From positions 1 through 52,906 of the forward strand of contig UYFQ01000029.1 of NCBI GenBank assembly GCA_900617105.1: 52,906 nucleotides of DNA, written 5' to 3'. Under the pieces are notes generated by a model. The model saw only the letters and a program-made list of their open reading frames with translations. It was not told where the DNA came from and did no database searches. Every line of letters begins with the position of its first letter. Positions within the stretch are counted from its first letter, which is position 1. Below are positions 13,631-51,977 of the stretch, in pieces. This DNA is from Hydrurus foetidus. Taxonomy: Eukaryota. A program made the position numbers and the translations under genes.

Positions 13631-13909
13631 TGTTGGAATTCTGGGCGATTTACACGGAATTTCTTCCGAGTTCCCAAACGATCCCTGCACTTCCGACTGC
13701 TAGCAACGCTCGCTCAAAAGAGAAGACAACGTTCTGTTCGGTAAGTTGGATTAAACGACAGTGACGTGCTCTCGATTACATCTAGGTAGCATAACATGAG
13801 TGCGAGGGTTGCGGTCAATGTTATCGCTGAATGTACGTACACCCGTGCATGAAAACAATCATACACCACACAGGGTACAAGATCGTAGTCTAATCCGGAT
13901 ATCCCAACA
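13631..13909 (-). repeat. Copia B 3' LTR
   Basis: Direct repeat of 18777-19055 with about 5 substitutions by eye; preceded on the minus strand by catcatggggtg (PPT). Confidence 0.96.
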
Positions 13910-14419
13910 CACCCCATGATGGTTATTGTTTGAATATGTGAATATGTTAATTAGTATATGCTTATATTGTATACTTATTGGTTATTGTTCATAATGTTTC
14001 ACACAACACTTAGATAGGGAACTTAGTGTTAGGGTATGGTAAACAGTAAATTTTCTTAAAAATATTTTTCACGGAATTTTTTAATATTGACAAGTTTCAT
14101 CGTGATATGGTGTAAAATAAAACATGGGTGGTTGGATTAGTGGATAGGTATTACTCGAGAAAAACTATTTCTAAACCGTCAAAAAAGCCTCAGCTGGTGA
14201 CCGGTCTCGAGTTCGATCCAACCGATGTTGGTGCCCTTAAATCCGCTAAAACGTCGACATTCGATGTCGCAAAAGCGGTGCATCGATGTCCCTCGCGGTC
14301 CTATCAAACAAATGTTGATTTAAAGCGAAATCAGATTTTTATTTTTATTTTGTAATTTATCTGGAAAAAGCGCTATAAGTGGGTAAGTCAAAATCAATAA
14401 ATAACTCCCCTGAATTTCT

Positions 14420-17400: not shown

Positions 17401-17535
17401 CTGCATGCTTTATCTAACAATGGCACAAACGCAGGGTAACCGGTCGACGTTGCAAATACGTCATGCAGTCCGGTTTCCCCACACGGAACATTTACATCCT
17501 TAGCTAGTGAATCAGGTAAAAAACATATAAGGGAC
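14420..17535 (-). pseudogene. pol: Copia B pol (PR, truncated IN, RT, RNase H)
   Basis: PR LLDACAAES; RT KSRLVAGG, DFPGAFL, KKALYG, HVDD; RH IDASYAVH, SSTEAEL, QDN, ADLLTKPL. Stop at 17121, integrase core missing, breaks at about 16130 and 15280. Confidence 0.93.
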
Positions 17536-18720
17536 TTACTTTTCCGAAGAAGGGTGACGCGCAGGTGCGTTCTTCCTCGGCGGCTTCTTACACTCGTACG
17601 CGTAATGGCCCTCCTCCCCGCAGTTGTTACACGCTCCGTAACGGGTACCGTACTCCTGTACGGCACCACCTCTCTCTCTCTGTGGGGTGGCCTCCCTATC
17701 CCTATAGGGAGTGCCTGCCCTCTTACTGCTCTCGCTGCCGGGGGTGTCGAATCCTCCCTTCTCAGCTCCGCTCTCTCCGCTGCCACGGCCTCTGCCGCCT
17801 CTCCCGGTTGAACCCGCTCTCCCACCCCGACTGGCCGCGAAAACGTTTCGCTTCTCCGAGTTCGGGGGAGCTCCTCCGTGGACGGGCCTTCCCATGAGGA
17901 AGTTGGCCGCGTCCTGGTTGGCATCGGCCATGGTCTGCGGCCATGACCGAACCTTATTTTTAAACGTATTGATATATTCTAAATAGTTTGAATTAAGTCC
18001 AGTTACAAATAATACAGCATGGAACTCATCTGTGTGAATGGGCTCTTCTTCGTCGGCGATCCTGTATGACTCGCTCTTGACAAACAGAAGCGTCCTACAC
18101 CTACTAAAATAAGCAGCTAGATCTTCGTTCTGGTACATTTTATTATTATAAAAGTTTCTAATAGCTGTAGTCATATTATATACATCTCCATACCTTTTGT
18201 TGTTCATGTGTGTTGCAACCACACATGTCAACACCTCCAAAGGATCGCAGTCCTCTATGGCTCTCTTGCCTGCCGGCATCTCGTTCACCCTTGTGATCGA
18301 GGCGTCCGACATCTGACCTAGTATTACACCATACAGTTTTGCGCAGTCTTTTTTATGTAATTCAATATTAGCAACATATTTCTTACTTGCTGTCTTCCAC
18401 CTCTCTATGGCCACCATGCCGGCGTTATCCGGCGGGTCGTCTGGCTCTACGAATTCTTCGTAATCTGAGAGGACCCCATCTATGCCAATAATTTCTTTAA
18501 TGGAAGATTCGTAAGTACTATACATATATACTCTTAAACATTCAAGCCATTTCAACACAGCTTCCGGATCTGCCGCTTGGCCTCGTGGCAGATCCAGGTA
18601 AGCACCTACCTCGGGCTTCCTACCTTTTACTATGGGTTTATGGGGCTCGCCTTGCCCCCTACCATATCGACCCCTGCCCCCGCCACGGGACTGGAATCTT
18701 CCATCGCCTCGTCCTCTCAT
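17536..18720 (-). CDS. gag: Copia B Gag (394 aa)
   Basis: Intact ORF 56 nt after the 5' LTR; RGG-rich N-terminus; CCHC knuckle CNNCGEEGHYAYEC; homologous to 33010-34128. Confidence 0.92.
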   Translation of the reverse strand: MRGRGDGRFQSRGGGRGRYGRGQGEPHKPIVKGRKPEVGAYLDLPRGQAADPEAVLKWLECLRVYMYSTYESSIKEIIGIDGVLSDYEEFVEPDDPPDNAGMVAIERWKTASKKYVANIELHKKDCAKLYGVILGQMSDASITRVNEMPAGKRAIEDCDPLEVLTCVVATHMNNKRYGDVYNMTTAIRNFYNNKMYQNEDLAAYFSRCRTLLFVKSESYRIADEEEPIHTDEFHAVLFVTGLNSNYLEYINTFKNKVRSWPQTMADANQDAANFLMGRPVHGGAPPNSEKRNVFAASRGGRAGSTGRGGRGRGSGESGAEKGGFDTPGSESSKRAGTPYRDREATPQRERGGAVQEYGTRYGACNNCGEEGHYAYECKKPPRKNAPARHPSSEK

Positions 18721-18765
18721 CCTTGCAATCTTTTTGCAACTTACTATCTAAGCTATCTAAGGATG

Positions 18766-18776
18766 ACTGTCGTTTA
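18766..18776 (-). promoter_or_regulatory. Non-tRNA primer-binding site of Copia B (TAAACGACAGT), complementary to LTR site 18898-18908
   Basis: Directly abuts LTR terminal CA; no TGG; perfect 11-nt reverse complement of ACTGTCGTTTA in the LTR sense strand. Confidence 0.8.
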
Positions 18777-19055
18777 TGTTGGAATTCTGGGCGATTTACA
18801 CGGAATTTCTTCCGAGTTCCCAAACGATCCCTGCACTTCCGACTGCTAGCAACGCTCGCTCAAAAGAGAAGAAGACGTTCTATTCGGTAAGTTGGATTAA
18901 ACGACAGTGACATGCTGTCGATTACATCTAGGTAGCATAACATGAGTGCGAGGGTTGCGGTCAATGTTATCGCTGAATGTACGTACACCCGTGCATGAAA
19001 ACAATCATACACCACACAGGGTACAAGATCGTAGTCTAATCCGGATATCCCAACA
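18777..19055 (-). repeat. Copia B 5' LTR
   Basis: tgttgggatatc...aattccaaca on the minus strand; direct repeat of 13631-13909. Confidence 0.96.
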
Positions 19056-21219: not shown

Positions 21220-24200
21220 GACCGTTCCTTACGGCACGAGTTCAGGATCTGGGATTTCGTAAAATCACCCTATGGGGCGGAAAAAACGTGAATTTTTCCA
21301 GAACTCAAAAACTCAGAACTCGAGTTCTGGAAAAACAGGCAGGGGTTGCACGGTCGTGCGCACACGCGCACACTCACTGTTAACTTTATATATCGACTTC
21401 GTCGACGAACATACTCATCACTCGATAGCACCATCTCTCACAGATATACCCTGCAGAAAACTTTCGTCCTTTAAGCTGCCACTTCGCGACCTGACTAACT
21501 CGACCATGGTGAGTCTAGTGGTAGTATTTTTTTCCAATGAAATTCAACCGATCGACCAAAAACTGTCTTCTCCTGAAGATCGATTCATCGACAAAGGTTG
21601 CTTGCAGCCAGAATTCATCATCGGCAACAGTTGCGAGTGCTTTTCAAGATGATTTCAGTAGCTGTTAATAGCATCAACTAAACAATGATGTGAAAGTAGC
21701 TCATGCAACTACTTTTTCGATCTCCTTCTTCATGTATCAGGCACGCACAAGTTTGCACGGACTGGCATCTTAGCTATAATCTCTCTCTACCTGTGATTCT
21801 GTGCGCACCTCAATCCCTTTCATTGTGAGTCATGGCAGATATGAGTTACCAGCAAAATTTCTCGGAGAATGAGATCAAATCTCACCTCCTCTCTTACCGA
21901 ACTTGCCATTTTTGATGGATATCGTCAGATTGACAGTCTCTTCCGTCCATCAATGTACTGGATATCCCCGTAACAGCAATTTTCTTCGATAAGCTGTCAG
22001 ACATGAAGTGTAGAGGCACCTTTTTTTCGGATAACGTCACGCGTCCAGAGGTTGCAATGTTGATGGCAGATGTACACACTTATGTTGATGGCAGAATCGG
22101 AAAGAGAAAACATTAGCAGGCTGAAGTGGGCTAAGACAAACATCGTTAGCTGCTATTTAAGATTAAGAGACAGTACATACAGTATCATTTATAGATCATT
22201 AGTCATATCCTTTCTCAAAATTTCTAAACAATCATCTGCGATAGTGTATGCATTAAGTACCTGACTACCACCAATAACTTTATTATTCATACGACACACC
22301 AAATAATTTTCACGTGTAAGCTCATCATTATCAATTGGAATATATACATCTTGTATTGGTATTTTAATCTCTTTCGACTTGCTTGGAATATAATACACAT
22401 TTTCATTTACATTTTGACAGTACATTAGCTTTATAGTCATGCACCATGTACCCTTCTTGATTGTCTTTTTCATTCTTAAGCCATTAATCTCATATTCAAT
22501 TTCAGAATCTCGTATTGATTCTTTCATTTTTTTTGTCATGAGGCCCAACTGAAACGGCTCATCGTTAACGTCTTTTTTCTCGCTAGCAATAGCAATAACT
22601 ATATTTGTTTCGCTGCTTAGAGGTAGAGGCCCCTTAAAGAAATTGATCCTTTTTGTCTCATCGCACGATGTATTCTTCGGGAGCGCTGGCTCTTTGAACG
22701 GTAACTTTTTTACTTGTTCTTCCCTTAATGGTCCCGATGTTGGAGTATAATCACATCTGTGGAAATCATTTTTAATGCAACTGCTGCAGAAACACGAATG
22801 TTGTCGACTGAACAATTTAATTTGCCCTTGCTCTTTATAAGCTATTAAATTGAAGATTCCCTTGATTCCTTTCACTGGAGGCGCATCCCATCTTTCTCCT
22901 ATGTAGTCCGTGATTATAACATCTTTTTCTTTCGTCGCTCTTTCGATCATGTCAGGAGTTGCATCAACTTTATCCACAAGGAATCGATGGAATCTTCTTG
23001 TTATAGTCATAGGATTCCTTTGAGAATCTTCTACAACATCCGGAGCCATAGGGTACTTTGAGGTGAAGAGTTTGAATAGATCATAGGATGTAGGGCAACG
23101 TGTTCCTTCTTCTTCATCTCTCTCTAACTTCCTATAAAATGCTTTTGTAACATTTCCTTGACCATCCACCATTGTCTTGAATGATGCTGTGGGCGCATAA
23201 TTGTGAGTAACCACTACATTGAAGTCTTCAGCTAATGCTGCAACGAAGTACGCATTCCTTCGGCTTTTGTACTGCTCGGCACAACCATCTGTAAAGATGT
23301 TGATTCTGCTCAAATTAAGATCTTCTTACTCATTTACAATGTGTCTCGTCGACACACTGTGGTAGTAACTATTTGCTTCTAGAACTCCGCCTTGCGCTGA
23401 CCAAATATGCCAAACGTCATTATCCTGAATCCTCTTTAATGTTCCATTTTTTAGTACTATGGATCTTGGACTGTGGGTCGCCAGAAAAATACATTGGTTT
23501 GACCGACACGGTACGGCGGTGTTTAGCCTATCTTGTACATCGTGGTCTAGGACAGCTGAAAAATCAGTCATCAGTGTAAGAACTTCCGTTGATGAAGTGT
23601 TTACACATACTGTTCTTGCGTGTGCATTCCACTTTACATTCCACTCATGTGGTATGGCCAACTTCGCGCAGAGTATTAAGTGTTCTATGAGCTCATCTCC
23701 ATTCATCTTAACTTCAACAATTTCATACTGCATCCCACGCGACCTTCCAAGCACATTTTCATATTTGCGGACTATAACTTCAACATCCTTATTTCTTTCA
23801 ATATTGCACATATTTGTTTCATTAAAAAATCTGTCTATTCCGCACTCATTACACTGCTGATATGCACAATCTTTGTAATAGCATGCAAATAATGGACCCC
23901 ATGTTAATAAAGGAATGCTCTTTGGCTGCCTCGCTGATCCCTCTCTTTTTATATTTCTGTTTTTTTTTAATTTTCCAGTATTAGATGCTACTTCTTGTTT
24001 TAAGCGTGATGCTTCAACATTCATTTCTTCCTGTTTTTTAATACTGTCAGTTGGATTTGATTCTGAAGACAGAAGCGGATACTCTTTTTTCGGGCACAGG
24101 ACAGCGTCCATGAGAGCACTTAATGAAATATGACATTTTAAATAATTTTCGTTTCTGTGACCGTTACATAAGCAGCTTTTCATCGGAATCGATATTCCTT

Positions 24201-26173
24201 GATACCTTCGAAGGTTTGCAATAGCTTTGAGAGAATTGTAATAATTTATTTGTATGTGATTTGCACAATCTCTTTGCTTCTGATTCATGCAACATGGACA
24301 GAATGCGTTGGCAAATATTCTTAGTTTTATTGTCGGAATGATAGTACTTACTGTATTACCCTTTCTTTTAACTCTCAAATTTTCTTTCTGCCAATTATTG
24401 TATTCAGGTGACTTTTGAAATATATCATAATAACATTTGATGGATTGACTTCTTACATGGACCTGATGGTACGAGAATGTCCCGTCATAATTGTGTACGT
24501 ACACTTTAGCTGAGGCGAACGTATCAAGTCTACAAACATCGTGACAAAAATCTCGCACGACACCAAGGTCCAATTTATCATCCCTTATCTTCCTTTCCTT
24601 TGGCGACAATGCCGTATAGAAGATATTAGTCTTTGGCTTCCTAATTGAGTCAGAATTTCTATATTACTTTTCTGATCCAAACTTTCACTGTCATCATCTA
24701 AGTCCATCATATTGCAATAATGATTCTCTATGTCAGTAGATATTACATCAGCTCCTGACTCATCCGATGATTGCAATTCATTCAATGTATGGTATGTTTT
24801 AATCTCACTTTTCTCCTTTTCTATAAGTTGATCGAATACATTTCGTTTTATTTTTCCATTTGTTATTCTTCTTCTAGACACACCAAACAATTTTGATATT
24901 TCAACACTATTCGAATTTTCATATGATATTGCTGTGATAACATTTTCTATTGTGCTCTCCACTAGCGAGAACTTTCCACCGTATTCGCGGAGACCGTTAA
25001 AGTAATTTTTCAAAGAATTTATGATACTATTATTCGTTTCGTTATTTACTTCCTTATTTTCATTAACATTATACTGTTTCTTAATATTAATTATGATACC
25101 TTCCATAATTTGACATTTTTTAGATGGGCTAAACCCTACAGTGACTTCGTCCAGGACTTTATTAAGTTTCTCAAAAATCATTTTCACGCTTTGATTGATC
25201 GACGTTGCTCTGGCGTAGTCTTTTTTACCGGGACCCCTCTCACCCCACTTCAATTTTCTCTTTTCACCGACGTCTTCTCTTACATCATCATCGGATTTCT
25301 CATCTGGTTTCAACCAGTCCGTCGGCACGTGTGAACCTCTCCTACTCATCCCACCCGACACCGTGAAAACGATCATCTTCGTTTGGTAATCAGCTCTGCC
25401 CTCGAAGAAGAAATTCCCAGCATTCATGAGAATTTGAAATCCACTTTTGTTCTTCTTGCTGTAATCCATTAAACCTTGGTATATGAACGCATTCATCCCA
25501 AATGTCTCGCATTCTTTTGATAAGTAAAGACTAATTTGTCCAGTTGCTGGTGCAACAGTCCTTCGAAACACGCTCAAATCAGAATCTTTGTGATTGAAAT
25601 AGGAGTCCAGATCACTCAGAAATTGATTAAAGCGGCCCAATAAATCCTGGAGTCCATTCTCTTCCGATTCAACATTGCGGCCACCGATTTCCTAAAAACG
25701 AAGGGAGAGAGAATGGTTGCATGAGCTACTTTCACATCATTGTTTAGTTGATGCTATTAACAGCTACTGAAATCATCTTGAAAAGCACTCGCAACTGTTG
25801 CCGATGATGAATTCTGGCTGCAAGCAACCTTTGTCGATGAATCGATCTTCAGGAGAAGACAGTTTTTGGTCGATCGGTTGAATTTCATTGGAAAAAAATA
25901 CTACCACTAGACTCACCATGGTCGAGTTAGTCAGGTCGCGAAGTGGCAGCTTAAAGGACGAAAGTTTTCTGCAGGGTATATCTGTGAGAGATGGTGCTAT
26001 CGAGTGATGAGTATGTTCGTCGACGAAGTCGATTTATTAGTACAGAACGTGTGCGCACGACCGTGCAACCCCTGCAGGGCCATTTTTCCAGAACTCGAGT
26101 TCTGAGTTTTTGAGTTCTGGGAATTTTCAAATTCCAAGAACCCAGAACTCATGCCGTTTTAAAAGGAACGGTC
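21220..26173 (-). mobile_element. DNA transposon with long (about 460-490 bp) TIRs and a Sola-like transposase, TGA TSD
   Basis: Termini gaccgttcctt / aaggaacggtc; TGA flanks; 318-bp inner IR, apparently perfect, at 21392-21709 / 25716-26033. Confidence 0.88.
22189..25640 (-). pseudogene. Sola2-like DDD transposase (about 1150 aa) with one frameshift and one in-frame stop
   Basis: Motifs TDFSAVL, FTDGCAEQYK, APTASFKTMVDGQG resemble the DF..../SDGCxxQYK/HGKxxxDG pattern. Cys-rich segments (CPCC, C..C, SCFCSSC). ORFs 23326-24609 and 22189-23313 are in the same frame. Confidence 0.7.
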
Positions 26174-32378: not shown

Positions 32379-32607
32379 ATTTGTTGCTGTAAGTTACACG
32401 TTATTTGTAGTATTCTAACAACGAGCTCTGAAGAGTCGAAGTGCTCCTCCAGAGATATTCCTCAGCTGATCCGACTGCGTAGATTCAACAACAGAAATCT
32501 CTTACTGTCCTTAAGTTGTTGCAGTTCCTTCGCCCTTCTATCTCGATCTACAGTCTGATCAATAATTATCAATAGTCTGTATCCCATCGACTCTTCACGG
32601 TTGATAC

Positions 32608-32972
32608 TGTCGGAATAACTAATGAGCTAAGTAACCGTATAAGTTATTACGTATGTACATTTGATGACGTTTCGTACGTCGTGTGCCGTGTGGTGGTCGC
32701 TACTCCACCGGTCCAGGTTCCTTTAACCCAGGAACATCAAAAAGATGAAAGTGCACCATGTTTGACTGTGCGGGACAGCGCGATCTTTTCGCCTGTCTCC
32801 ATGAACGATGTAAGCGATGTTGCATCGTTAATTACCTTAATACTCACACCAGCAGAGCTTTTGCCTTGAGCCCGGGAAAGCTGCTAGCGCACGTGTTGAA
32901 CTTGCAGAAGGAGCGCGTACCCAGGAAGGATATAGTTTTCCATTCAGTGGAAACTGATCCTTAGTTACGACA
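32608..32972 (+). repeat. Copia C 5' LTR
   Basis: tgtcggaata...gttacgaca; direct repeat of 38624-38988. Confidence 0.97.
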
Positions 32973-32983
32973 TAATTAACGAT
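32973..32983 (+). promoter_or_regulatory. Non-tRNA primer-binding site of Copia C (TAATTAACGAT), complementary to LTR site 32824-32834
   Basis: Abuts LTR CA; no TGG; perfect 11-nt reverse complement of ATCGTTAATTA within the LTR. Confidence 0.82.
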
Positions 32984-33009
32984 TTGCTTTCGTTGCAACC
33001 AGTTGCAAC

Positions 33010-34128
33010 ATGAAAGGCAGAGGCCGAGGCAGAGATAACAATACCGCAGGCGGTCGAGCAAACCCTGCCAACGGTGGCAGAGGGAATGCTGGCCGCGGCG
33101 CGAAGCCTCCACCAAGAACAGGAACGGTAGCCGCGATCGGCGCATTCCTGGATCTAGGAAGGGAGATGAACCATGGCAGCGTAAGCGCATGGATGAGGAA
33201 GTTCCGCGAGTACACTCGCGCGAACTACAAGTCCGATATCTGCGAGATATTCGGCAATGAGGGCATACCGGGTAATTACCCGCAATATGTCGCTCCAGTT
33301 GACATAGCAGCAGATGCTGGCTTTATGGCGGCAACAAAGTGGAAGAGAGCGCTAGAGCTTTATGACAAGCTCATCCTGACTTTAAGGGAAGATAGAAAAC
33401 AGGTTTTCGGATTAATGCTAGGGCAAATAAGCGAACAGTCGAAATCGACAATTCGAGAAACCGAATCGGGTGCTACCGCCATGTTAGAGGAGGACCCACT
33501 ACTATTGCTGCGAGCAATAATATTGACTCATCTATCCGACCCGAGGCTAGGAGCAGACCAGAACCTTCTCAGAGTCCGCATGGCCTATGAAACAGTTAGG
33601 ATGGAACCTAACGACGTTTTGAAATTTTACTACCAACGGTTCAAGGCTTTGAAAGCCGGGTACGAGGATACTATGCGCGCATTAGGAGTAATGCCCGAAT
33701 TCAACGAAGCTATGACTGCGCACAATGAAGTGCTAACCGGCATGAAATTCATGAACGGGTTGAACTCCGGCTATCGACACTACGTCGAGTACTACGAGCA
33801 CAGGCTCAAGGACTGGCCGGATACGCTAGAGGAGGCGTACCTAGAAATGGCGAAAGTAACGCCGAAGAAACCAGCGGCCACAGCACCACCCAACCAGACC
33901 AACGTCTTCGCCACGAAGATGGCTGGAGGTGCAAAACAACCTGGGATGGACGATGGGAAAGGTAAGGCTAACGGGAACGGAGGTAGAGGGAAGGGTGGGC
34001 GTACGTCGTACGGCACCCGTCCCGGGAATTGTAACAAGTGTGGCGAACTAGGACATTACTCATACGAGTGTACGGCCAAGGATAGCCAAGCGGGTGCATC
34101 AGCACCCACAGGAAAATCGGTAAACTAA
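33010..34128 (+). CDS. gag: Copia C Gag (372 aa)
   Basis: RG-rich N-terminus; CCHC knuckle CNKCGELGHYSYEC; follows the 5' LTR. Confidence 0.94.
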   Translation: MKGRGRGRDNNTAGGRANPANGGRGNAGRGAKPPPRTGTVAAIGAFLDLGREMNHGSVSAWMRKFREYTRANYKSDICEIFGNEGIPGNYPQYVAPVDIAADAGFMAATKWKRALELYDKLILTLREDRKQVFGLMLGQISEQSKSTIRETESGATAMLEEDPLLLLRAIILTHLSDPRLGADQNLLRVRMAYETVRMEPNDVLKFYYQRFKALKAGYEDTMRALGVMPEFNEAMTAHNEVLTGMKFMNGLNSGYRHYVEYYEHRLKDWPDTLEEAYLEMAKVTPKKPAATAPPNQTNVFATKMAGGAKQPGMDDGKGKANGNGGRGKGGRTSYGTRPGNCNKCGELGHYSYECTAKDSQAGASAPTGKSVN

Positions 34129-37100
34129 GTAAGATACATTATTCCTCACCTGTACACTCACCCACACCTACACCTGTACATACACCCGCATTTACATCCA
34201 CACACACACCTATACATACACTCACCGATCCTCCATGTTTGGCTGATTCCACTAGCGGAATTGAAACATGTGATCATATTGTTTTTAGTGCTAACACATG
34301 CAATGTATATAACGCAATTAGAAAACGTCACATACTTCTTGACACATGTGCTGGTGAGTCGGTTTTCAACGACTCATCCCTGCTGTATAATGTTGAACAC
34401 GCACCCACACCCATGATTGTTAGCGGGGTGAATCCGAAAGGAAAACCGCTAATAATCAAGAAACGTGGGGTGTCGGCGTTCGGCAAAGTGTATTATAGCC
34501 CTGACTGTGCTGGTAACATATTGTCTTTTGGTAATGCTGTACGTGACTGTACTGATGTTAAGTACTTACACGACTATGACTGTTACATAGTGCAAGATGT
34601 CAGCGGAAAATATTTTTATAGATTCTCACGAGATGAGACTATGAATATATACCAATGCAATCTTGACACTATGGTAACTGAATGCATGCCAATGTTAGTT
34701 ACGACAGTCGAACAGAATAAGAAGAAGTATACAGTAAGAGAAGTTAGAGACGCGTCGTTAGCTAGAGACTATCAGCGTAGACTAGGATACGCTAGCGCAG
34801 CACAGACCATTAAGTTGATATCCCAAGGGAATTTGACTAATAGCAAAGTGACTGCGCGAGACGTACATAGAGCTATTGATATATGGGGACCGGATGTGGG
34901 ATCCCTTAAGGGGAAGACCACTAGTCACCAGGCCAAGTTAGAAGAAAAGTTACCATTGATAGGTATAGAGTACAAGACAGAACAAACCATGTACGTAGAT
35001 ATAATGTTCGTCAACCAGGTACCATATCTAGTATCAGTTGTTCAGCCCATCGAGTTTCTATACGTTAGTAAGTTAGCTAACAGAGAACACAAGAGCATAT
35101 GGAACAGTTTGAAGACTTCATTAGCAAGCATGGTAAAGTACAGATTCAGAGTTAAAATGATCCGAGTAGATGGCGAGGGTGCAATTAACACAGAATGGTT
35201 TCACAACAAAGTCGGTTTAAGAGGTATAGTATTAGACGTTACCGGAGCCGGAGAAGCCGTAGCCGTTGTCGAGCGTAAGATACGGCACATAAAGGAGAGA
35301 GTAAGATCAGTGATTAATTCTCTGCCATTCTCATTAAACGAGAAACTAGAAGTGTGGTTAGTTAAGTATGCAGTCAGTAGAATTGTATTAGCTCCCACAC
35401 GTAACTCACTCAACCACATCAGTCCGAGAGAAAAATTAACCGGAAGAAAGCTAGATGTAGACAAAGAGATTAAACATGGTTTTGGTGATTATGTTCAAGT
35501 ACATAACGATGTCATTGATAATTCTACCAAACCAAGAACAGCCGGGGCCATAGCACTTATGAGCTCCGGTAATCTAGAAGGTTCATGGTACTATATGCTG
35601 TTAGCTAACGAACGTATTGTAAAACGTACTAAAGCAACTGTACTACCTATGCCTGATGAAGTGATATTACACTTGAATGTATTAGCTTCAAAGAGAAAAA
35701 CTGCCAATGTTAAACAGCCTGTATTTGAGAATAGTAGTCACATTGTATTCGATGATGATGACGATGTTGAAGATGATAGTGCTTACATTGGTGATGTTGA
35801 ATATGAAACTGTCGATGAAAATGCTAACGCAGACTACACCGATGAGATCATTGAAGATAACGATCACAATGATAACGAAACACATCTTGAATCACAACTC
35901 GATATGTCTGATGAAAATCACCCACCCACATTAGATGAGTATGTAGATGACACACTATATGTAAATGACACTACATATGACAACGACGAACTATATTATG
36001 ATGACACACATGATGATACACATGTACCCCAACCTAAATATGATCAAGCACTGATAGATGACATATTTGGAATAAGTGATGATGAAGATGACTTCGCTGA
36101 TGTAACTGTACACCCTGAAGTATTCACTCCACCTGACACCATAATAGACACTGCATATGACCCACCTGTTATTAACTCACCCATACTGCGTAGAAGTGGT
36201 AGAAATCACCAACTTGGAAAATGGGATAAGAAATATGTTGGTAACCTGTTTTATAATCACACTCACCTGTATAAAATGACTGTTAATGAAGGTATTAATA
36301 AGTTAGGGGTGATAGCTGTTGACTCCATCACATCTGAACTCAAACAAATGTGTGATAAGAATGTTTGGGAAGGTGTAACTTATGAATCCCTCACCCCACA
36401 ACAAAAACGCACCATCATATCTAGTAGCATGTTTTTAAAAGAAAAGTACACTGCTGATGGTATGTTTGAAAAACTGAAATCTAGACTAGTAGCCGGTGGG
36501 CACTTACAAGATAGAGATGTTTATAACAATGGCGCCTCGCCTACTGCTAGCACATCTAGTGTATTCATACTGACTGCAATTGCTGCTAGACAGAAGCGTG
36601 CTGTCGCCACTGTTGACTTCCCCGGTGCATTCCTGAATAGTGATATGCCGCTGACCGGCGACCATGTAGTGTACATGCGTCTGAATAAACAACTGACTGC
36701 TGCACTAATCAAAATTGATGCAACATATAACAAATACATGAATAACAATGGAACATGTATTGTTAAACTCAAGAAAGCTCTATATGGATGCGTTGAATCT
36801 GCTAAGCTATGGTATGATAAGCTATCCAGTGATTTGATTAAATTCAACTATATTGCTAATGAATATGATATTTGCGTATTCAACCGAACTGAACCGGATA
36901 ACACACAAACCTCACTCGTAATTCACGTTGATGATATGATTATCACTGCTTCATCTGAATCTCGTGTGAACGATGTTATAACTCAAATTGAAACTTTATA
37001 TCCCGGTTTAACGAAACATAGAGGAAAAGTTTTGAACTACATAGGTATGACCTTTGACTTCAACAAGGAAGGAAAGGTCAAGATGACAATGGAGGGATTT

Positions 37101-37997
37101 GTACAAGATCTCATTGAGGGGTGCGGGGATATGCCGGGCACGGCTACCACACCCGCACGGCCAAACCTATTTACCCCACCTGTTGAATCTGACTCATACT
37201 TACCTGATAATTTGCGTGAGCGTTTCCACTCCATTACAGCGAAGCTACTCTACTTGAGTAAGCGGACGAGGCCAGATATTCTGACAGCCGTGGCGTTCCT
37301 AACCAAGAGAGTACTGAAGCCCCAGAGGGACGACTATGACAAGTTGACCCGCACGGTACAGTACGTACGGGGCACCCAACACATGGGTATAACTTTTGAA
37401 GTGTCTGAACCTATCCGTGTTATTGCATACATCGATGCATCTTTCGCTATACATCCCGATATGAAAAGTCACACAGGCTGCGTGATCACCCTGGGAAAGG
37501 GAGCAATCTATGCCAAGAGCGGAACCCAGCGGCTGATGACAAAGTCGAGCACGGAGGCAGAGTTGGTCGCACTCAGCGACGCCTCCAACCAAGTGCTGTG
37601 GACTAGGAACTTCCTAGAACGCCAGGGACACCCTCAACCCCCTGCACTCATATACCAGGACAATCAGTCCACCATACAACTAATGCGTAACGGTCGCTCA
37701 AATAGCGAACGGACTCGCCATGTCGACATTCGATACTTTTTCCTGCACGACAGGATCACCACGGGTGATATCGATATTGCGTATTTACCTACTACTGACA
37801 TGATTGCAGATATCCTAACTAAACCACTACAGGGGGAATTGTTTAAGAAGCTCAGGAAGGAGCTGCTCAACACTACACCACCTACCCTCACGTACGCAGA
37901 AGGCTGCAAGACTGAGGACCGTACGGACTCTGCGCCGACACCCGTACGAACAAAATTCAACCCACACTTTCCATACCCCACGTCCAAGAAGAACTAA
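34086..37997 (+). CDS. pol: Copia C Pol (PR-IN-RT-RNase H), -1 frame relative to gag; frame open from 34086
   Basis: PR LLDTCAGES; IN YVDIMFV, VDGEG, VERKIR; RT KSRLVAGG, HVDD; RH IDASFAIH, SSTEAEL, QDN, ADILTKPL. Confidence 0.95.
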   Translation, partial: PSGCISTHRKIGKLSKIHYSSPVHSPTPTPVHTPAFTSTHTPIHTLTDPPCLADSTSGIETCDHIVFSANTCNVYNAIRKRHILLDTCAGESVFNDSSLLYNVEHAPTPMIVSGVNPKGKPLIIKKRGVSAFGKVYYSPDCAGNILSFGNAVRDCTDVKYLHDYDCYIVQDVSGKYFYRFSRDETMNIYQCNLDTMVTECMPMLVTTVEQNKKKYTVREVRDASLARDYQRRLGYASAAQTIKLISQGNLTNSKVTARDVHRAIDIWGPDVGSLKGKTTSHQAKLEEKLPLIGIEYKTEQTMYVDIMFVNQVPYLVSVVQPIEFLYVSKLANREHKSIWNSLKTSLASMVKYRFRVKMIRVDGEGAINTEWFHNKVGLRGIVLDVTGAGEAVAVVERKIRHIKERVRSVINSLPFSLNEKLEVWLVKYAVSRIVLAPTRNSLNHISPREKLTGRKLDVDKEIKHGFGDYVQVHNDVIDNSTKPRTAGAIALMSSGNLEGSWYYMLLANERIVKRTKATVLPMPDEVILHLNVLASKRKTANVKQPVFENSSHIVFDDDDDVEDDSAYIGDVEYETVDENANADYTDEIIEDNDHNDNETHLESQLDMSDENHPPTLDEYVDDTLYVNDTTYDNDELYYDDTHDDTHVPQPKYDQALIDDIFGISDDEDDFADVTVHPEVFTPPDTIIDTAYDPPVINSPILRRSGRNHQLGKWDKKYVGNLFYNHTHLYKMTVNEGINKLGVIAVDSITSELKQMCDKNVWEGVTYESLTPQQKRTIISSSMFLKEKYTADGMFEKLKSRLVAGGHLQDRDVYNNGASPTASTSSVFILTAIAARQKRAVATVDFPGAFLNSDMPLTGDHVVYMRLNKQLTAALIKIDATYNKYMNNNGTCIVKLKKALYGCVESAKLWYDKLSSDLIKFNYIANEYDICVFNRTEPDNTQTSLVIHVDDMIITASSESRVNDVITQIETLYPGLTKHRGKVLNYIGMTFDFNKEGKVKMTMEGFVQDLIEGCGDMPGTATTPARPNLFTPPVESDSYLPDNLRERFHSITAKLLYLSKRTRPDILTAVAFLTKRVLKPQRDDYDKLTRTVQYVRGTQHMGITFEVSEPIRVIAYIDASFAIHPDMKSHTGCVITLGKGAIYAKSGTQRLMTKSSTEAELVALSDASNQVLWTRNFLERQGHPQPPALIYQDNQSTIQLMRNGRSNSERTRHVDIRYFFLHDRITTGDIDIAYLPTTDMIADILTKPLQGELFKKLRKELLNTTPPTLTYAEGCKTEDRTDSAPTPVRTKFNPHFPYPTSKKN

Positions 37998-38612
37998 TAC
38001 CTATCGACGAAGACTCCATCCGACATGCTACCCCCTCCATCTTACCCTTCTACAACGCCGCTGTCCGCTTCAGCTGAAGACTGAACACTCAAGACCCCAA
38101 GACTCCGTCATTCCTACTGCCCCCACATCCGACTCTACTACCCCATCAGCGCGCGTCATGACGAAGACTGACCACTCAAGACACCAAGACTCCATCATTC
38201 CTGCTGCCCCCCTCCATCACTTTTCTTCTACCCCATCAAGTGCGACTCAAGAAAACCCTGACAGAGACATAAAGAGCGAGGACCGTGGACCCAGACCCAA
38301 GACCCGATTCCGGAATCAGATAGTATAACAAGTCAGAAAATTATTTTAAGTGTAATCTTTTGCGTGTTACATAAAGTCTTTTTAGAATTGTTTAACTCTA
38401 TGCTCATTCGGATCAGTCAGACCTTATGATACTAATATTACCCTGCATGCAATAAATTATCTAACGTCACAATTAAGGTCAACCCCACCATTACCCTACT
38501 TCCCTACAATATAAAATCATGTTATGATACACCATTTGTGAAGCTTCAAGTAAACGAGCATTTTTGAATTCTATTGCGTTTTCATTCGCGTACACCAACC
38601 CGACGACTCACG

Positions 38613-38623
38613 CCATAGGGGTG
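38613..38623 (+). promoter_or_regulatory. Short PPT of Copia C (ccataggggtg)
   Basis: Directly precedes the 3' LTR; same GGGGTG end as in family B. Confidence 0.7.
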
Positions 38624-38988
38624 TGTCGGAATAACTAATGAGCTAAGTAACCGTATAAGTTATTACGTATGTACATTTGATGACGTTTCGTACGTCGTGT
38701 GCCGTGTGGTGGTCGCTACTCCACCGGTCCAGGTTCCTTTAACCCAGGAACATCAAAAAGATGAAAGTGCACCATGTTTGACTGTGCGGGACAGCGCGAT
38801 CTTTTCGCCTGTCTCCATGAACGATGTAAGCGATGTTGCATCGTTAATTACCTTAATACTCACACCAGCAGAGCTTTTGCCTTGAGCCCGGGAAAGCTGC
38901 TAGCGCACGTGTTGAACTTGCAGAAGGAGCGCGTACCCAGGAAGGATATAGTTTTCCATTCAGTGGAAACTGATCCTTAGTTACGACA
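38624..38988 (+). repeat. Copia C 3' LTR
   Basis: Direct repeat of 32608-32972. Confidence 0.97.
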
Positions 38989-39939
38989 GATACTATCAAG
39001 GGGGTATTCAAGAGAGAGGGGGCACTTCGAACCCTCCCCCTCACTGAGAATTTTCTCACCGCCGCCACACTCGACTCTCAAATACCCAACTTCGATCCTG
39101 AACAGTCTTCCCATTGAATCTGATGTCTCGATGTAGCTTCCTGTCTTTTACAGCTATCAAATAGAACCCCAATTTCTGAAAAGCTTGTTTCCGTGCTGAG
39201 TTTTTTTGATCGAATGTTTGAGGAACCTGAGGATGTGCAGTCTTTCATGTAAGCGCTAGTCAATCTGTTCACTATCTGTTTTCGTCGATTGATTCTGTGA
39301 ACCCCAAGAAATTTTTCTTATTTTGGTGAATTGTGAACGCCTGCTGCAGCAATTCAAAAAGTACATCCTCCAGACTGTCTAGATACCACCATAAAATTTT
39401 CTGCAGCAACGCTCGAGAGACTAATTTTTTTTACCTTCCTGAACATTTCTCGTGATCAGACCTTCACGTGACTGCTTCGATGGCTCTGAAATTCTGGGAA
39501 TACTCAGACTATGCCTGAAGAAACATTTCGCGATTGAAATGAGGACTGACAAATTCATCGCTGGCAGACCCGGCGAATCTATTCTTCGACATATTTTATA
39601 TTTACACTCCGGAATCACGGAGATAATTTATGATAGTATTCTAGATAGTTTGAGAAGGCTTTGTAGACTGGCCGCCGTCAGCAATATACTGTCTAATCAT
39701 GGGATTCTTTTGCTCGAGGCAATACATTGAAAGTTTCCTACCGGTACGGTGAGCTATTCGAATTGGAAGAGTTCTCGGCAAAACATTTAGCCTCCAAATT
39801 TGTCAAGAAACGTAACCATAAGAAGGTGCCAACAGAAAATCAGTGACTGATGTAATTGCCAGATCACATCATGTACTTCCATATCGTAACATTTCCACAA
39901 TATGTACTGTTAAACTAACTGCAGATGTCTGAGATAATA

Positions 39940-40937
39940 TCACCCCCCTTTGCGGGTTACCAGGCGGTCGTATCTCGCACTGCCTCTTCACATGGTGACC
40001 ATGAGGTACTAATGCAATGCATGAACATTGTATCTGCTCAATGTGACTTGTGTGAGTCATAGTATAGTCATGTTAATTCTCATGCACATGCACATACTAT
40101 ACTGCTATTAGCTGTTATTAGGGATGTCGTCACCCCCCTTTGGGGGTTACCAGGGGGTCGTATCTCGCTCTGCCTCCTCACATGGTGACCATGAGGTACT
40201 AATGCAATGCATGAACATTGTATCTGCTCAATGTGACTTGTGTGAGTCATAGTATAGTCATGTTAATTCTCATGCACATGCACATACTATACTGCTATTA
40301 GCTGTTATTAGGGATGTCGTCACCCCCCTTTGGGGGTTACCAGGGGGTCGTATCTCGCTCTGCCTCCTCACATGGTGACCATGAGGTACTAATGCAATGC
40401 ATGAACATTGTATCTGCTCAATGTGACTTGTGTGAGTCATAGTATAGTCATGTTAATTCTCATGCACATGCACATACTATACTGCTATTAGCTGTTATTA
40501 GGGATGTCGTCACCCCCCTTTGGGGGTTACCAGGGGGTCGTATCTCGCTCTGCCTCCTCACATGGTGACCATGAGGTACTAATGCAATGCATGAACATTG
40601 TATCTGCTCAATGTGACTTGTGTGAGTCATAGTATAGTCATGTTAATTCTCATGCACATGCACATACTATACTGCTATTAGCTGTTATTAGGGATGTCGT
40701 CACCCCCCTTTGGGGGTTACCAGGGGGTCGTATCTCGCTCTGCCTCCTCACATGGTGACCATGAGGTACTAATGCAATGCATGAACATTGTATCTGCTCA
40801 ATGTGACTTGTGTGAGTCATAGTATAGTCATGTTAATTCTCATGCACATGCACATACTATACTGCTATTAGCTGTTATTAGGGATGTCGTCACCCCCCTT
40901 TGGGGGTTACCAGGGGGTCGTATCTCGCTCTGCCTCC
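39940..40937. repeat. Tandem array, 190-bp unit, about 5.25 copies
   Basis: caccccc(c/t)tt recurs at 39941, 40131, 40321, 40511, 40701, 40891; units identical except the start of the first. Confidence 0.97.
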
Positions 40938-41968
40938 TTTGGCATGAACATGAATAAATCCATGAATCAGGAATCGATAAAGATATGAAATCGGATTCTC
41001 GTTTAAGGCTAAATTGAGATCAGAATTAAATTCATCTTTTAACGTAACACATGAGTTTTGAAAATAAAGCTGAACTTTTTTAGAATTTAGTATGACATTC
41101 TGTACGAGCTTCACAGGCTCATATGCATTAAATAGTATAAGAACATTAGTAGATAGCGACTGCATCCATATTGCTTGAATTAGTTTGATGAAATCTAAGT
41201 TAGCTTCTTTAGAGTAATACAATCCTTGAGAATGTTCGCGAAATAGAATGCATTCGGCGGGCAAACCTTGCATTAATGCAGTATGTCCGTCAGCTAAACG
41301 AGAATTTTTTTAATAATTTTGAAACGTGGTCACATATTCCGGTCGCAAACGATTTAAATGAAGCAGATTGTAAATTCTATGTCCACAAATATACCCGGTG
41401 ATATCGTATACCTTATGGAGCATAGTAGGAGAAAATTCAAATTCTTCATCGTTTATCCGCTCTTTGATGTAATCAGTAACATGCAGTTTCTTTGTCATAT
41501 GGAACCACTTCCAGAAATTTTTATAGAGGAAATCTTCCAAATAGAAAAAAATTAAACGACTCTGAGCAGAAACGCTGACAGATAGCTCCTCGTTTTGAGG
41601 TTCGTCAAATAGTTGTTGCAAAAGTGGGAAGTTCACAAACTTCTGAACACACAAAATGCGACTAGCATTTCTGTCGTTCTCAAAACTAATCTCATCGCTT
41701 TTCCGGATTTCATACGCTTATCGAGATCACCCACGGTAGAAGATACATGCTTTTTGTAAGATGACCGCAAATTTGATGCCAACTCAAACAGCACTTTCTG
41801 CAAAAATATGCTAGAGGTTTCTTCGGCCAAGAAACGCGTAAAGAAAAGCACGTGCAAGCTTTCACGCTTGAGGAAAAATATTTCGCAGTAAAAGAGATCC
41901 TCTATAGTTTTCTCGTAGATACCTCCGGACTGAAGAAAGCAGTCGGCGTCGAAATCGATTGATTCCAT
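40890..41968 (-). pseudogene. Broken ORF resembling the C-terminal region of P/THAP9-type transposases
   Basis: VYDITGYICG, REHSQGLYYS and LIHGFIHVHAK resemble the YIAGY..GGL..PS..YL.IR pattern; three pieces; no catalytic core recognised. Confidence 0.45.
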
Positions 41969-42199: not shown

Positions 42200-44086
42200 C
42201 TATGGCGTGCCAAAGGTGTTTTTATTATTTTCACCGTTTTCCCGAGGATCCCGTACTTTTCTTTCTCCGCTCCTACCCTCGCATCTCCAAACTCCAAACC
42301 ATCATACTCCTCTCAACTCATAGCACTGTAGAAAATGCAGCTTCACTCCAGTTGGAAAAGTGAATCAGCAGTTCCTCGAGATGCCTATCATAGCAGCTAT
42401 AGCCGCTACTACTACCTTTGGAAATTTTCATCACGAGAGAAATCAAGCATCCCGAAGACTCATGAAAACAGGAGATTTCACCATCTCCAAACCATACAGA
42501 GTATCTGCGACAGCAGGTAAGACTCTTCTAACGCTTGATTCTTGCTTGAACATGCACAAAAATCTAGCTACTGAACTTTAATACGCCAAAGGCTGACGCC
42601 AAATGTTCCATTCCACCGAAAATTTTTGATGCCATTTTTGTCTAAAAAAATTAGTTCCTCTCTATTTTGCAACTGAGCCGCTCAGCTCAATTCACACGAA
42701 ATTCTGAGTGAAGTAGCAAAGTATATCTGTCATGATGCTTGCAAATTCTTAGCGTCTCATGTATTATGTGGCATTTGCTGTTATAGTTACAAGCGTTCAA
42801 AAACATCACCTCAATATCACCATCACTTTTGCATATATCTCGCGGATTATTGCTCTGCTGATAGAATAGAATATTGTGATCATTACATTACACACTGAAT
42901 AGAATGTCTCGAAGATTTCGCAGTAGAGCATAACAAATTGTAATTAAAAGCATTCTTATCCTGAGAAAAGTGCTCTTTCATGGACAGCTTTTGAAACTCC
43001 TGACTGCTTATGCAAAATGCCGCTTGTGAAACGGCGGTTCAAAGAACCAGTCTAGCTTTTCTTGAGGCTCGAGTGCAAGGGGCAATGGGCTTTTATCTCC
43101 TTGGACAATTCTGGGTCAGCAGCACGCTAAGCACAGAGAAATTGCTGATGTTTCTCTAGTAAATAGGCAGAGATGAAATAGCTCCGATTGCAACATCCTT
43201 TGAACAACTTCAAATAAGTGCACTGCTACCAGCGCTAGGAAACAATTTTATAATTCAGTTTCGCTGACAGCATTCTGCAGAAGCATATAGAAGATTCAAA
43301 AGCTGTCCATGAAAGAGCACTTTTCTCAGGATAAGAATGCTTTTAATTACAATTTGTTATGCTCTACTGCGAAATCTTCGAGACATTCTATTCAGTGTGT
43401 AATGTAATGATCACAATATTCTATTCTATCAGCAGAGCAATAATCCGCGAGATATATGCAAAAGTGATGGTGATATTGAGGTGATGTTTTTGAACGCTTA
43501 TAACTATAACAGCAAATGCCACATAATACATGAGACGCTAAGAATTTGCAAGCATCATGACAGATATACTTTGCTACTTCACTCAGAATTTCGTGTGAAT
43601 TGAGCTGAGCTCAGTTGCAAAATAGAGAGGAACTATTTTTTTAGACAAAAATGGCATCAAAAATTTTCGGTGGAATGGAACATTTGGCGTCAGCCTTTGG
43701 CGTATTAAAGTTCAGTAGCTAGATTTTTGTGCATGTTCAAGCAAGAATCAAGCGTTAGAAGAGTCTTACCTGCTGTCGCAGATACTCTGTATGGTTTGGA
43801 GATGGTGAAATCTCCTGTTTTCATGAGTCTTCGGGATGCTTGATTTCTCTCGTGATGAAAATTTCCAAAGGTAGTAGTAGCGGCTATAGCTGCTATGATA
43901 GGCATCTCGAGGAACTGCTGATTCACTTTTCCAACTGGAGTGAAGCTGCATTTTCTACAGTGCTATGAGTTGAGAGGAGTATGATGGTTTGGAGTTTGGA
44001 GATGCGAGGGTAGGAGCGGAGAAAGAAAAGTACGGGATCCTCGGGAAAACGGTGAAAATAATAAAAACACCTTTGGCACGCCATAG
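42200..44086. mobile_element. Foldback element with about 795-bp near-perfect inverted arms and a 299-bp spacer
   Basis: Arms at 42200-42995 and 43295-44086; termini ctatggcgtgcc / ggcacgccatag; ATA on both flanks; identical 73-aa and 61-aa ORFs on opposite strands. Confidence 0.9.
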
Positions 44087-44726: not shown

Positions 44727-45234
44727 TGTGAGTCAGACTGTGGAGTGAAGCGAGCTACCTGTTGGCTGCGGAAGCGCAAAGGAAAGACTGGCTGATGGAA
44801 GTGGTCTCAGAAGACGTGTTTACTTACAACGATCAAGTAGTAAAACAACTGGCGATGATATCAGAGAAGACAACCATCAAAGAAGCAAAGCAAAGCATCC
44901 ATTGTGCATGAAATGGTGATCGCCGAAGTGGAAACATATTCAGCGAATATTCAAGTTGGCGATTGAGCAATGGGCGGAACCCTCGCTGCTCATGAAATCG
45001 GATGCTTGGTGGAAACCGGATACCTGGTGGAAATCCGGATGCTTGGTGGTGAAAAACCGGATGCTTGGTGATGGCCCCGAAGGGGGATATCGCTAGAAGA
45101 ACGATGAGCGTATGTACACAACAGTGTATGGCGGTGTTTTGGGTGAGGAAGCGCTACACTACTTGTGACATGTGAATGCTAATCTACAGATGAAACTATG
45201 CTAACAGATCATGCATGAATATGCTGGACTGACA
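44727..45234 (-). repeat. Copia A 3' LTR
   Basis: Direct repeat of 52068-52575; preceded on the minus strand by tacggggag (PPT). Confidence 0.96.
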
Positions 45235-45441
45235 CTCCCCGTAGTGAAGATGTAGCTGAACGTGTTATTGAGAGTATCGAAATGAATGATATGTGTATAT
45301 ATACTCCCCGTACTGAGGATGTACTCCCCGTACGAGAGATTTGGCAAAAAGTGTAAAAAGTTAGTTATAATATATGCGTGCACTCATATAAGATAGTAAA
45401 ATTAGTACGTATGTTAGAAATATGGATATTAAGTATTTATG

Positions 45442-48400
45442 TTATTTAATATTAGTTCGTAAAGACTTGTCAACGAGCCTGTGCGTTAGGTATTCGAAAA
45501 GTGGTAGTGGAACTCTTTTCGTACCTATGTCTGAGTTGTTTTCGCCCGAAGGGATTTTAACAATGACACAGGTACCATCGGCGACTTTGTCCTTAAAGTA
45601 GTTTTCGCTCAGGTCAATGTGACGAAGGTTCTTGGTCATGTGTGTATGATTTGAAGCATCAACACAAGCAGAATTGTCTTCTTCGATGACTGTAGGAGCT
45701 TGTGTCCATCCCATGTGGTTTAGTATGCCCCGGAGGGGAATGACATCGGATTTTAGTGCGTGATTAACTGCCTTGATTTCGGATTCCGCAGTTGATGATG
45801 AGATGCTGCCTTGGTCGGTACTCTTCCAGCAGATGACATTGTCGGCGAGGTAGCCAATGTAGGAGGTCTGGGAGTGACGGTTGTCTTTGTTACCGGCGAG
45901 GTCGGCGTCGCATTGGAACTTCAACTGCAGTAGACTGGTCATCGTAGCGATGTCGGTGGGACCGTCGTGTGTGGTGAATTTCAGTCTATCCATCTTGGCG
46001 TACTTGACATATCGAAGTAAGTGCTTAAGAAACTTGATGTGTCGTGCACCTGGACTGTTACTATATCTGATAGTATGTTGAGAGCGTACATGATTGTGAT
46101 CAATGTGTGTACCATTCCGTACATAAGTTGACCAACTACCCGTCGGTAGGGATACTTATTATACATGTGCCTATCGAGATCGGTAGAGTTGTCCGCCTTG
46201 GACAGACTCTCACCAGAAGGTGGATATGGTAGATGCTCATCGGCGGCGCCAGCAAGGTTGGCCTCCGATACGATGGATGTGATCATGCGTGACTGATCCA
46301 TGTAGTAGTTGAAGTGTTCATCGCATGTAATGCGGATGCCGACGAACTCTTTGGAGGTCGCGTCGGTGACTTCATACTTGTGGGAGTTGAATGTAGCGAT
46401 GAGGAGATCCCATTCGCTAATGAGTGCAAGTGGTCCGAACCATCTGAAGTCGTCTGAGTGTGCTATCAGTATCAGGGGTTGACCTTGGACCCACTTAAAG
46501 AAGAACTTTAAGTCCCACGGTGTGTTTTCGTATCCACATTCGCGTACACATTTGTCGAATTCCTTTGAGAAATTCTGGCCTGCTGGTGGAAAACCGTAGA
46601 GGTTGCCAATGGCTTGAAAGCATGTGCCAAAAGGTGTGGTGTAACCTTGAGGTGTCTTGATGTGAACGGGAAAGTCGGGGTTAGCGAGTGTGATTAAGTA
46701 GGCGCCTACTAAATCTCCTCCCCGCATGGATAATTTGTAGGTTGCGGCTATGACGAGTGCAATCTTGATCGATGACGCATTGACATTACCGCAGTATACT
46801 GCGTAGGGGTCGAAGTCGACCCAGGGTATCATGAGATCACCACGACCTACGAGGCGGGCCTTCTTGGTGCCGTCAGTCTTGATACTGAAGAGCCACATCA
46901 TTGGTACGAGGTGCTGGCCGGTGAAGGGGACAGACCGGAAGCAGTTGTTGACTTCAAACTTAGTGCGCTCAGTGTTGATGGCCTGTTCCCACTCTGGGTA
47001 CTGCATTGCGGTCCAGAAGTCTTTGGGGATGTAGGGATCCTTGATTTGGACTGCTATGTTGTAGTGCAGGACACGGAAGAGGTGAACAGGGAAGCATGTG
47101 GAAGAACTGGTGTAGGTGGACCAGTATATCATGTCATCGTTGACTGAGTGCTCTGTCTCAGGTACAGGGGTTATATAGTCGGGGTCGATAAGGGGTGCAG
47201 GTGAGGGGAGGCCGGGTAGGTCGACTCGCTCAGGCACCACAATAGGGTCATTATCATTATCAGTATAGTAGAGGGACGGGATGAGGGCGAAGGCCTCGTC
47301 GGTAGGGAAGTGTGCATCTGAGTCATGCTTGAAGTTGTTGTGCATGTCGAAGATGACATCCTTACTGACTCGAACAGTACCGTAGGTGTTCTTGGGTAGT
47401 ATTTCTAATACTAAATATTGTGGTATTAGTATAGATGTAAAACTATAACCAACGAACCGAGCACGGTAGGCACGAGGTGACCCAACTTTACTTTTCTGAT
47501 CTTTGGGTGCGTGCTTGACATAGCAGGGTGCCCAGAATGGTCGAAGCATCCTGATGTCCACGTGTTGCCCAGAAGTGAAGTGATACGGAGAAGTACCAAT
47601 ACGCTTGTTAAGGTTAAAGGAATGAGTAACACATGCATAGGACATTGCAAGGTCCCAGAACTTCATTGGCACATGCGGAACAGGGGTTATCATGGCAACG
47701 TTGGTCTTGAGAGCTACAATGCCGACTGCTCGCTCAGCGATGCCGTTGGCATGTTTGTCACGAGGTGCAGTGTGCTCAAGTCGGTATCGGTATCGGGCGC
47801 AAAGCGCAGTAAATTCTTCAGATCGGTAGTTGGCCTCTGGGTCATGCCGGATGAAGCGATCAACCCCAGGGGTATTGTGGTTCCATTGGGGGTTAGGTCG
47901 AAGAAGGCTGCAATGCGGGCACAGAGTTCAGAGGCGGACCGGTCTTTTGTATATACAGGATAGTATTGTCCCGACGCGAGGTCGGTGAGGATGTGAGTGT
48001 AACGGTAGTTACGGAATGATGGAGTCGAGTGGGTATAGGCATCCAAGGAGAACTGCTGGCCGACGAGGGTAGTTGTGTCTCTGTGAATGCGACGATAGTC
48101 TGTGGATGCTTGACGCATTGCGCCATGGGCGCATCCAGGACAGACCGGACGGGAGGTGTGTGCATCTTTGGTGGTGAAGCGAGCATTGAGGGAATGATCG
48201 CGGTGCCATGCCATGCCTGGAAGACCGGGGTGGCCTGTGGCTTGATGCACGTGGTCGTACAGTGAAGCGGGAGTATAGTGTGTGACCAAAAGACTCTCCC
48301 GAGTGGTTGGTCAGTAGGGAGTCTCCACGTAGAGGCCGTCTTGGACGGTTCCACGGGTGACCTCCTTTCCATGCTGAGCTACCAGTGCAATGTAGGGAAG

Positions 48401-51400: not shown

Positions 51401-51977
51401 GGTACATAATTGAAGGTGCCGTCAAATTCTCCGACGTTGTAGGCTCCGAGTATCCTGATGGGTTAAGTCTCGTTGGGATTGGCTCGCGACGCGTGCCCAT
51501 CGCCATTGGGTAGAGTCCAACGACATGGAGCATGTTGTCGAGAGCTTTGAAGCGCTTGTTAGATCCCACAGTCGTTGTGGTGATCTGGTTTTGCTTGATG
51601 CTATCCATTTCTGAAGAGGTCGTCAGAACGAGATCGAGTTTTAGCCGTTTTAGCTCCAAAACGGATTCCAAAGCGGCATTATATGATAGCCCATGTGCTG
51701 AAACTTCTGCCGAAGTTTGGCGCGGTGGCGTGGCTTCCTCTGCATGGGAGCCTCGTCGAGGTCGGTTTGGTGTCGAAGGATTTTGACGATTTGCCGTCGA
51801 GCTGGTGACCAAATTTTGAGTTTGGGCTCTTATGGCCTCGGCGACACGTTGATCGAACTCTGCGAGGGTCATGGAGAGCATGCGCGGCAGCTGGGCGCGG
51901 CTGGGAGTCTCTAGCCCAGTTGGGTCATGGTATTCCTCGTTGTTTTGGTCTGTGTTGTCGGACGATCGTAGCATCAT
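45442..51977 (-). pseudogene. Copia A gag-pol polyprotein, broken into six ORFs
   Basis: Gag with CCCH finger; PR IFDSGASRS; IN H..GH..CPGC, SLDAY; RT KARLVGRG, NLYG, HSDD; RH DADLAG, STAESE, EDN, SDIGTK. Confidence 0.9.

Follow-up and report, generated by a model that had tools for sequence, protein, structure and literature searches.

The family C element and its surroundings

The window, by which we mean the whole 52,906-nt stretch of Hydrurus foetidus DNA that was analysed, contains on its forward strand a Ty1/Copia LTR retrotransposon of family C (32608-38988, +), flanked by the target-site duplication GATAC on the left (32603-32607, +) and on the right (38989-38993, +). Its 5′ LTR is 365 bp long, has TG...CA ends (32608-32972, +) and matches the 3′ LTR (38624-38988, +) at 365/365 positions; a short purine-rich tract (PPT; 38615-38623, +) lies ahead of the latter. 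The gag ORF (33010-34128, +) encodes 372 aa with a CCHC zinc knuckle and is overlapped in the -1 frame by a pol frame that is open for 1303 codons (34086-37997, +). Motifs of protease (34335), integrase (34989-35265), RT (36609-36921) and RNase H (37425-37803) follow one another in pol on the same strand. The RT corresponds to Pfam RVT_2 (E 1e-20, 75 bits), while Pfam gave no protease and no integrase match in family C pol, both of which were assigned from motifs by eye; a PDB sequence search returned 0 matches. The motif order PR-IN-RT-RH with a Copia-type RT is that of Ty1/Copia elements, as are the TG...CA LTRs, the 5-bp target-site duplication and the PPT. An earlier sequence-only reading had described the element as intact, and the identical LTRs, the open gag and pol frames and the presence of all four enzyme motifs bear this out. 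Judged from these sequence features, it is a Ty1/Copia LTR retrotransposon that is both young and intact.

A slippery-looking heptamer stands immediately 5′ of the gag stop, within the gag/pol overlap (34086-34128), and marks a candidate -1 frameshift site (34119-34128, +). Among 28 relatives with a C-terminal knuckle, gag ends in Asn-stop in 18 (including family C), in KGK-stop in 9 and in another form in 1, a pattern suggesting that a -1 frameshift at this stop has been conserved. Such a frameshift is unusual for Copia elements. No strong structure was found downstream of the family C site (-3.3 kcal/mol). Two TTGCAA palindromes, which form a small hairpin, lie immediately 5′ of the gag ATG (32993-33008, +), and the same pair precedes the gag ATG of a second Copia family in the window, family B (18723-18739), the two leaders being otherwise unlike. 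This pair is a possible dimerisation or packaging signal.

Other mobile and repeated sequences are also present in the window. A Copia element of family D (44727-52575, -), very distant from family C, has 508-bp LTRs with 99.4% identity and a TGG-type PBS, and a further partial copy of it lies at 5515-6883. Inverted repeats of ~420 bp (94%) at 21289-26129 enclose three ORFs of 303-327 aa with no Pfam match, and the whole is probably a DNA transposon. A Ty3/Gypsy chromovirus remnant with RT, RNase H, integrase and chromodomain is found at 1-3721. Finally, ~five near-identical units of 190 bp form a tandem array at 39940-40938, and a pair of inverted repeats, each of 820 bp and with 98.5% identity, lies at 42200-44086.

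Complementarity between the PBS and the LTR

The PBS position of family C (32973-32983, +) abuts the CA of the 5′ LTR with zero spacer and is the exact reverse complement of 11 nt inside the same LTR (32824-32834, +), which recur in the 3′ LTR at 38840-38850. The sequence-only reading had noticed this complement, and we could reproduce its further statements that the match ends at exactly 11 nt and that the LTR site begins at an A, 149 nt from the LTR end. Its comparison of this A with an initiator needs a small correction: the A does follow a C, but in the context TGCA, which fits an initiator less well than does the TCA seen in most relatives. As that reading had also held, the site is not of the TGG type that pairs with a full tRNA 3′ end, since it starts with TAATT. 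In half-tRNA-primed Copia elements (Osser, Bryco, Bianca, copia), the PBS is complementary to the tRNA anticodon arm; the complement of the first 16 PBS bases of family C contains no Y-T-N-N-N-R anticodon-loop pattern. No tRNA genes were found within the 52,906-nt window.

When the family C LTR was shuffled with its dinucleotides preserved, 1/5000 shuffles gave 11 nt, close to the chance of about 1e-4 estimated previously. As a window-wide control, 7418 CA sites on both strands were compared with the 500 nt upstream, and matches of at least 11 nt were obtained at 4 sites outside two long inverted-repeat regions. Of these four, two correspond to the PBS of family C and to that of family B.

The family B element (13631-19055, -) is decayed, has 279-bp LTRs and is related to family C, with 63-69% amino-acid identity in RT-RH, whereas its LTR has no BLAST similarity to that of family C. 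Its PBS (18766-18776, -) abuts the LTR's CA and is the exact complement of a predicted 11-nt self-primer (18898-18908, -), which starts at the A of TCA. The 11-mer differs from that of family C, and the match to the family's own LTR likewise ends at 11. A third, partial family B copy lies at 7208-8300; the predicted primer site in its LTR differs at one position, and no PBS follows.

Further relatives came from two sources, contigs of metagenomes and contigs of eukaryote type found within MAGs. The metagenome scan confirmed 5 loci of 625 candidate stretches, a sample limited by the use of integrase alone as the query. Two scans of genome contigs gave 0 and 22 loci, respectively; three scans of viral contigs yielded no relatives, and gag searches were negative (0/19 and 0/1 genomes). 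Of 7988 scored sequences, 1711 were relatives at E 1e-30, and no named TAR protein (TAR being a plant Copia lineage, see below) stood among the 120 listed. Eukaryote-type Copia contigs in prokaryote MAGs (L006-L027, L040-L045), including 9 matches in G001, probably reflect binning contamination. The relatives of family C come from aquatic metagenomes, and the family C element itself was found in 7 runs, all as assembled contigs, glacier and freshwater samples among them. The contigs of 5 of these runs, aligned with the element, reveal no point at which molecules start, a feature that assembled contigs are unable to reveal.

A quick tree of 43 rows grouped C, B, L003, L005, L008, L010, L042, L043 and L006 in a single clade of 30 rows (97% support). 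This tree included 15 of 120 listed proteins and was built without named reference elements (L013 was dropped as too short); its root serves for drawing only, and the place of family D is unsure. L038 is linked to the clade through L006, whose 3′ LTR is 96% identical to L038. Nine elements have a readable LTR-PBS junction, 8 of them placed in the one RT clade and L038 outside the tree. This count leaves aside the clade members L009, L011, L033, L040, L041 and L007, the loci L001, L002, L004 and L037, and the sister clade L014-L027 (~21% RT identity), in which the 5′ end of L020 is cut within the LTR. The 5′ LTR of L005 is cut and was replaced by the 3′ LTR on its contig, and the LTR start is uncertain in L010 and L038.

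The PBS-LTR covariation that the earlier reading had proposed to look for among related elements is present: in 8 of the 9 elements open to this test, the PBS pairs with the element's own LTR over 9-15 nt. The paired length is 11 nt in C and B, 15 in L005 and L008, 14 in L038 and L043, 10 in L010 and 9 in L042, and the numbers of 5000 shuffles that reach the element's own length are 1 for each of C, B and L005, 0 for each of L008, L038 and L043, 4 for L010 and 15 for L042. Two of the pairings are weak, that of L042 and that of L010, which can be extended only if a bulge is allowed. When each PBS is set against the LTRs of other elements, the match averages 4.4 nt and never exceeds 9 nt (n=90 cross-pairings); the 9-nt match is that of L005 with L008, whose PBS starts agree, and these two, with 9 PBS bases in common, are not independent. 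Family D, with its TGG PBS in the same window, pairs with its own LTR over 4 nt. In 8/8 pairing families the duplex begins exactly at the first base past the LTR, the PBS sequences vary between families, and the LTRs of the 8 pairing elements show no mutual alignment apart from one 18-nt match. The exception is L003, a member of the same RT clade, in which no PBS-LTR pairing was found (3 nt). It has instead a hairpin across the LTR end (L003:940-960), reminiscent of the fungal GalEa hairpin site. With different families each pairing the PBS with their own LTR, self-priming is well supported by covariation.

In 6/8 elements (C, B, L005, L008, L038, L043), the first base of the match, counted from its 5′ side, is either the A of a CA or the base that follows this A. 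Given a background mean of 0.12 per position, the probability of this by chance is 5.7e-5, or 3.7e-4 with L005 and L008 taken as one, for a criterion that was chosen after seeing the data. The context is TCA in 5 of the 6; family C reads GCA. A CA at the edge of the paired stretch is as would be expected for a transcript start, to which it points indirectly. The TCA edges resemble the stramenopile initiator, whose commonest form in Phytophthora is given as TCATTCT in a study according to which an initiator is seemingly present in a diatom too (PMC3599244).

When the RNA was folded from the predicted start, the PBS-LTR duplex was dominant in 6/6 families folded. In the family C RNA (start at 32824), the pair probability is 0.69-1.0 per base for nt 1-11 and zero beyond. 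Contigs covering 32740-33060 have one variable site in the 11-mer (32826 C>T), compared with three in each near flank. This variant, carried by a subfamily, accounts for ~9% of summed depth in X4 and would give a U-G pair with the PBS; among 40 of 41 contig rows there are no PBS substitutions, so those rows hold no compensating change. In X4, the depths of the contigs add up to tens of thousands over the element and to 124 at the flank, but these sums are not a copy number.

Proposed self-priming and the alternatives

We consider it likely that in family C, as in Tf1, the first 11 nt of the element's RNA serve as primer for the minus DNA strand, because its PBS pairs exactly with 11 nt of its own LTR and most testable relatives do the same with different letters. 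Transcription would begin at A32824, and nt 1-11 would fold onto the PBS across the remaining 138 nt of R-U5. The RNA would then be cut behind nt 11, in all likelihood by the RNase H of the element, as happens in Tf1; this would leave a 3′-OH exactly at the LTR end, from which RT would extend the primer into a strong-stop product of ~138 nt DNA plus the 11-nt RNA primer. During plus-strand synthesis the primer would be copied into the new PBS, whereby PBS and LTR site would stay matched while the sequence drifts. Sequence motifs of the RT and RNase H that these steps call for are present in family C pol. Flanking duplexes of the Tf1 'pretzel' type were not found above chance in any of 6 families (best 39/300 shuffles), in a crude test with fixed 12- and 20-nt windows that could miss short helices. 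The earlier inference of a self-primed Copia lineage is strengthened by own-LTR covariation in 8/9 elements and tempered by the unpaired L003 and by flanking duplexes that do not exceed chance.

The pairing could also prime from a different molecule: the primer would be the RNA 3′ end (the 38840-38850 copy) or a short or cut transcript provided by a dimer partner or another copy, and priming would still be tRNA-independent. The LTRs being identical, DNA cannot show which copy provides the 11-mer; the lack of Tf1-like flanking duplexes in the 6 families counts for such a 3′-end or trans primer, and the would-be primers end in TTA in 5/8 and TTG in 2/8 elements, endings that could signal processing or termination. 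However, a 3′-end primer gives no reason for the initiator-like CA at the start of the match in 6/8, and its poly(A) tail would first have to be removed. We judge this alternative unlikely.

A second possibility, which we regard as quite unlikely, is that the duplex is an RNA structure serving packaging, dimerisation or translation, with priming by a host RNA (a tRNA fragment or other) or by another route. Such a possibility has been left open for fungal GalEa elements, which have a conserved hairpin of unknown function in place of a PBS (PMC5445492), and the LTR end of L003 is spanned by a hairpin, with no match to its LTR. Against this, the duplex starts in 8/8 pairing families at the first base after the LTR, precisely the point at which any primer has to end, and the PBS would thereby be masked from a host RNA; moreover, PBS sequences differ among families, unlike tRNA sites, and that of family C lacks the anticodon-loop pattern mentioned above. 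Chance complementarity of an A+T-rich, partly palindromic 11-mer is extremely improbable for family C, even though its PBS opens with the palindrome TAATTA and 2/7418 window CA sites reach 11 nt away from any PBS, and for the group it is refuted by 8/9 testable elements matching their own LTR and not those of others.

With self-priming from the RNA 5′ end as the preferred reading for family C, we lean, with less confidence, towards a wider one: that a widespread protist Copia clade, separate from TAR and Tf1/sushi, evolved tRNA-independent self-priming itself, with primers of 11-16 nt and without the flanking duplexes of Tf1, and that family C is the first Copia element in which this could be directly demonstrated. 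The family C copy can be tested because it is intact and has identical LTRs. If the wider reading is true, a protist clade with PBS-LTR covariation would represent a further, probably independent origin of self-priming and would bear on which mode of priming, by tRNA or by the element itself, is the ancestral one, a question raised before (PMC3601003). The known activities of these enzymes would likewise be widened by a Copia RNase H able to cut an RNA-RNA duplex that lacks the pretzel of Tf1, and annotation tools that require a tRNA PBS would misjudge the clade.

Comparison with known systems

To our knowledge, self-priming has been proven only in Ty3/Gypsy, and in Copia it has been predicted from sequence for one plant lineage. 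Family C has the arrangement of Tf1/Tf2 of S. pombe and of Tf1/sushi elements, in which the PBS follows the LTR's CA without a gap and finds its complement inside the LTR (PMC4600332). According to a review, the first 11 bases of Tf1 are paired to the PBS and are severed from base 12 by RNase H (PMC7175516), and the family C duplex is of the same length (PMC7175516, PMC4600332). Tf1 is described as requiring two flanking duplexes, the 'pretzel' (PMC10085805); unlike in Tf1, no three-duplex pretzel was found in family C, and the mechanism, proven for Tf1, is here predicted from sequence. Tf1/sushi elements are Ty3/Gypsy chromoviruses, whereas family C has the order PR-IN-RT-RH, an RVT_2-type RT and no chromodomain match. 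Membership of family C in Tf1/sushi was rejected, as it has neither the Ty3/Gypsy domain order nor a chromodomain.

Among Copia elements, the sequence-only reading knew of no self-primed lineage, and on this point it is wrong: self-priming was predicted for 89% of 203 elements of the plant Ty1/Copia lineage TAR (Neumann et al. 2019, PMC6317226), and the same paper cites an earlier proposal for Houba and Osr-1 (Capy 2005). Self-primed Copia elements are thus in print as a prediction, through the TAR, Houba and Osr-1 proposals (PMC6317226). Family C shares with TAR, as characterised there, the Copia superfamily, a 5-bp target-site duplication, a length of 6.4 kb that falls within the 5.2-10.9 kb of TAR, and PBS-LTR complementarity. 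It differs in that TAR is a plant lineage in which a single gag-pol ORF prevails (79%, not a strict criterion; PMC6317226), whereas gag and pol of family C lie in overlapping frames. Its score on RVT_2 is only 75 bits, and its relatives are from aquatic metagenomes, the nearest Atlas clusters being mostly diatom among their few labelled members. An origin separate from TAR is likely.

A possible likeness to the diatom CoDi elements (CoDiI, CoDiII) is suggested by the Atlas clusters nearest to the family C RT (score 0.97), whose commonest label is Bacillariophyta, from 3 labelled members each. The pol motifs of family C presumably resemble CoDiII-type proteins. CoDiI and CoDiII were defined by Maumus et al. 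2009, whose main text nowhere deals with primer binding, tRNA or priming (PMC2806351), and Vitte 2007 has no passage on priming (PMC1940013). Our search of openly accessible papers found no description of self-priming in diatom-like or other protist Copia elements; the proposed self-priming protist lineage is probably separate from TAR.

The fungal GalEa elements with their Conserved Hairpin Site are, like family C, Copia elements without a tRNA PBS; the authors report finding no complement of that site in the LTR, whereas the complement in family C sits in the LTR (PMC5445492). The mechanism proposed for family C and its relatives is known already and was predicted before in another Copia lineage; what these elements, which are very probably self-priming, add to it is the covariation and an intact copy.
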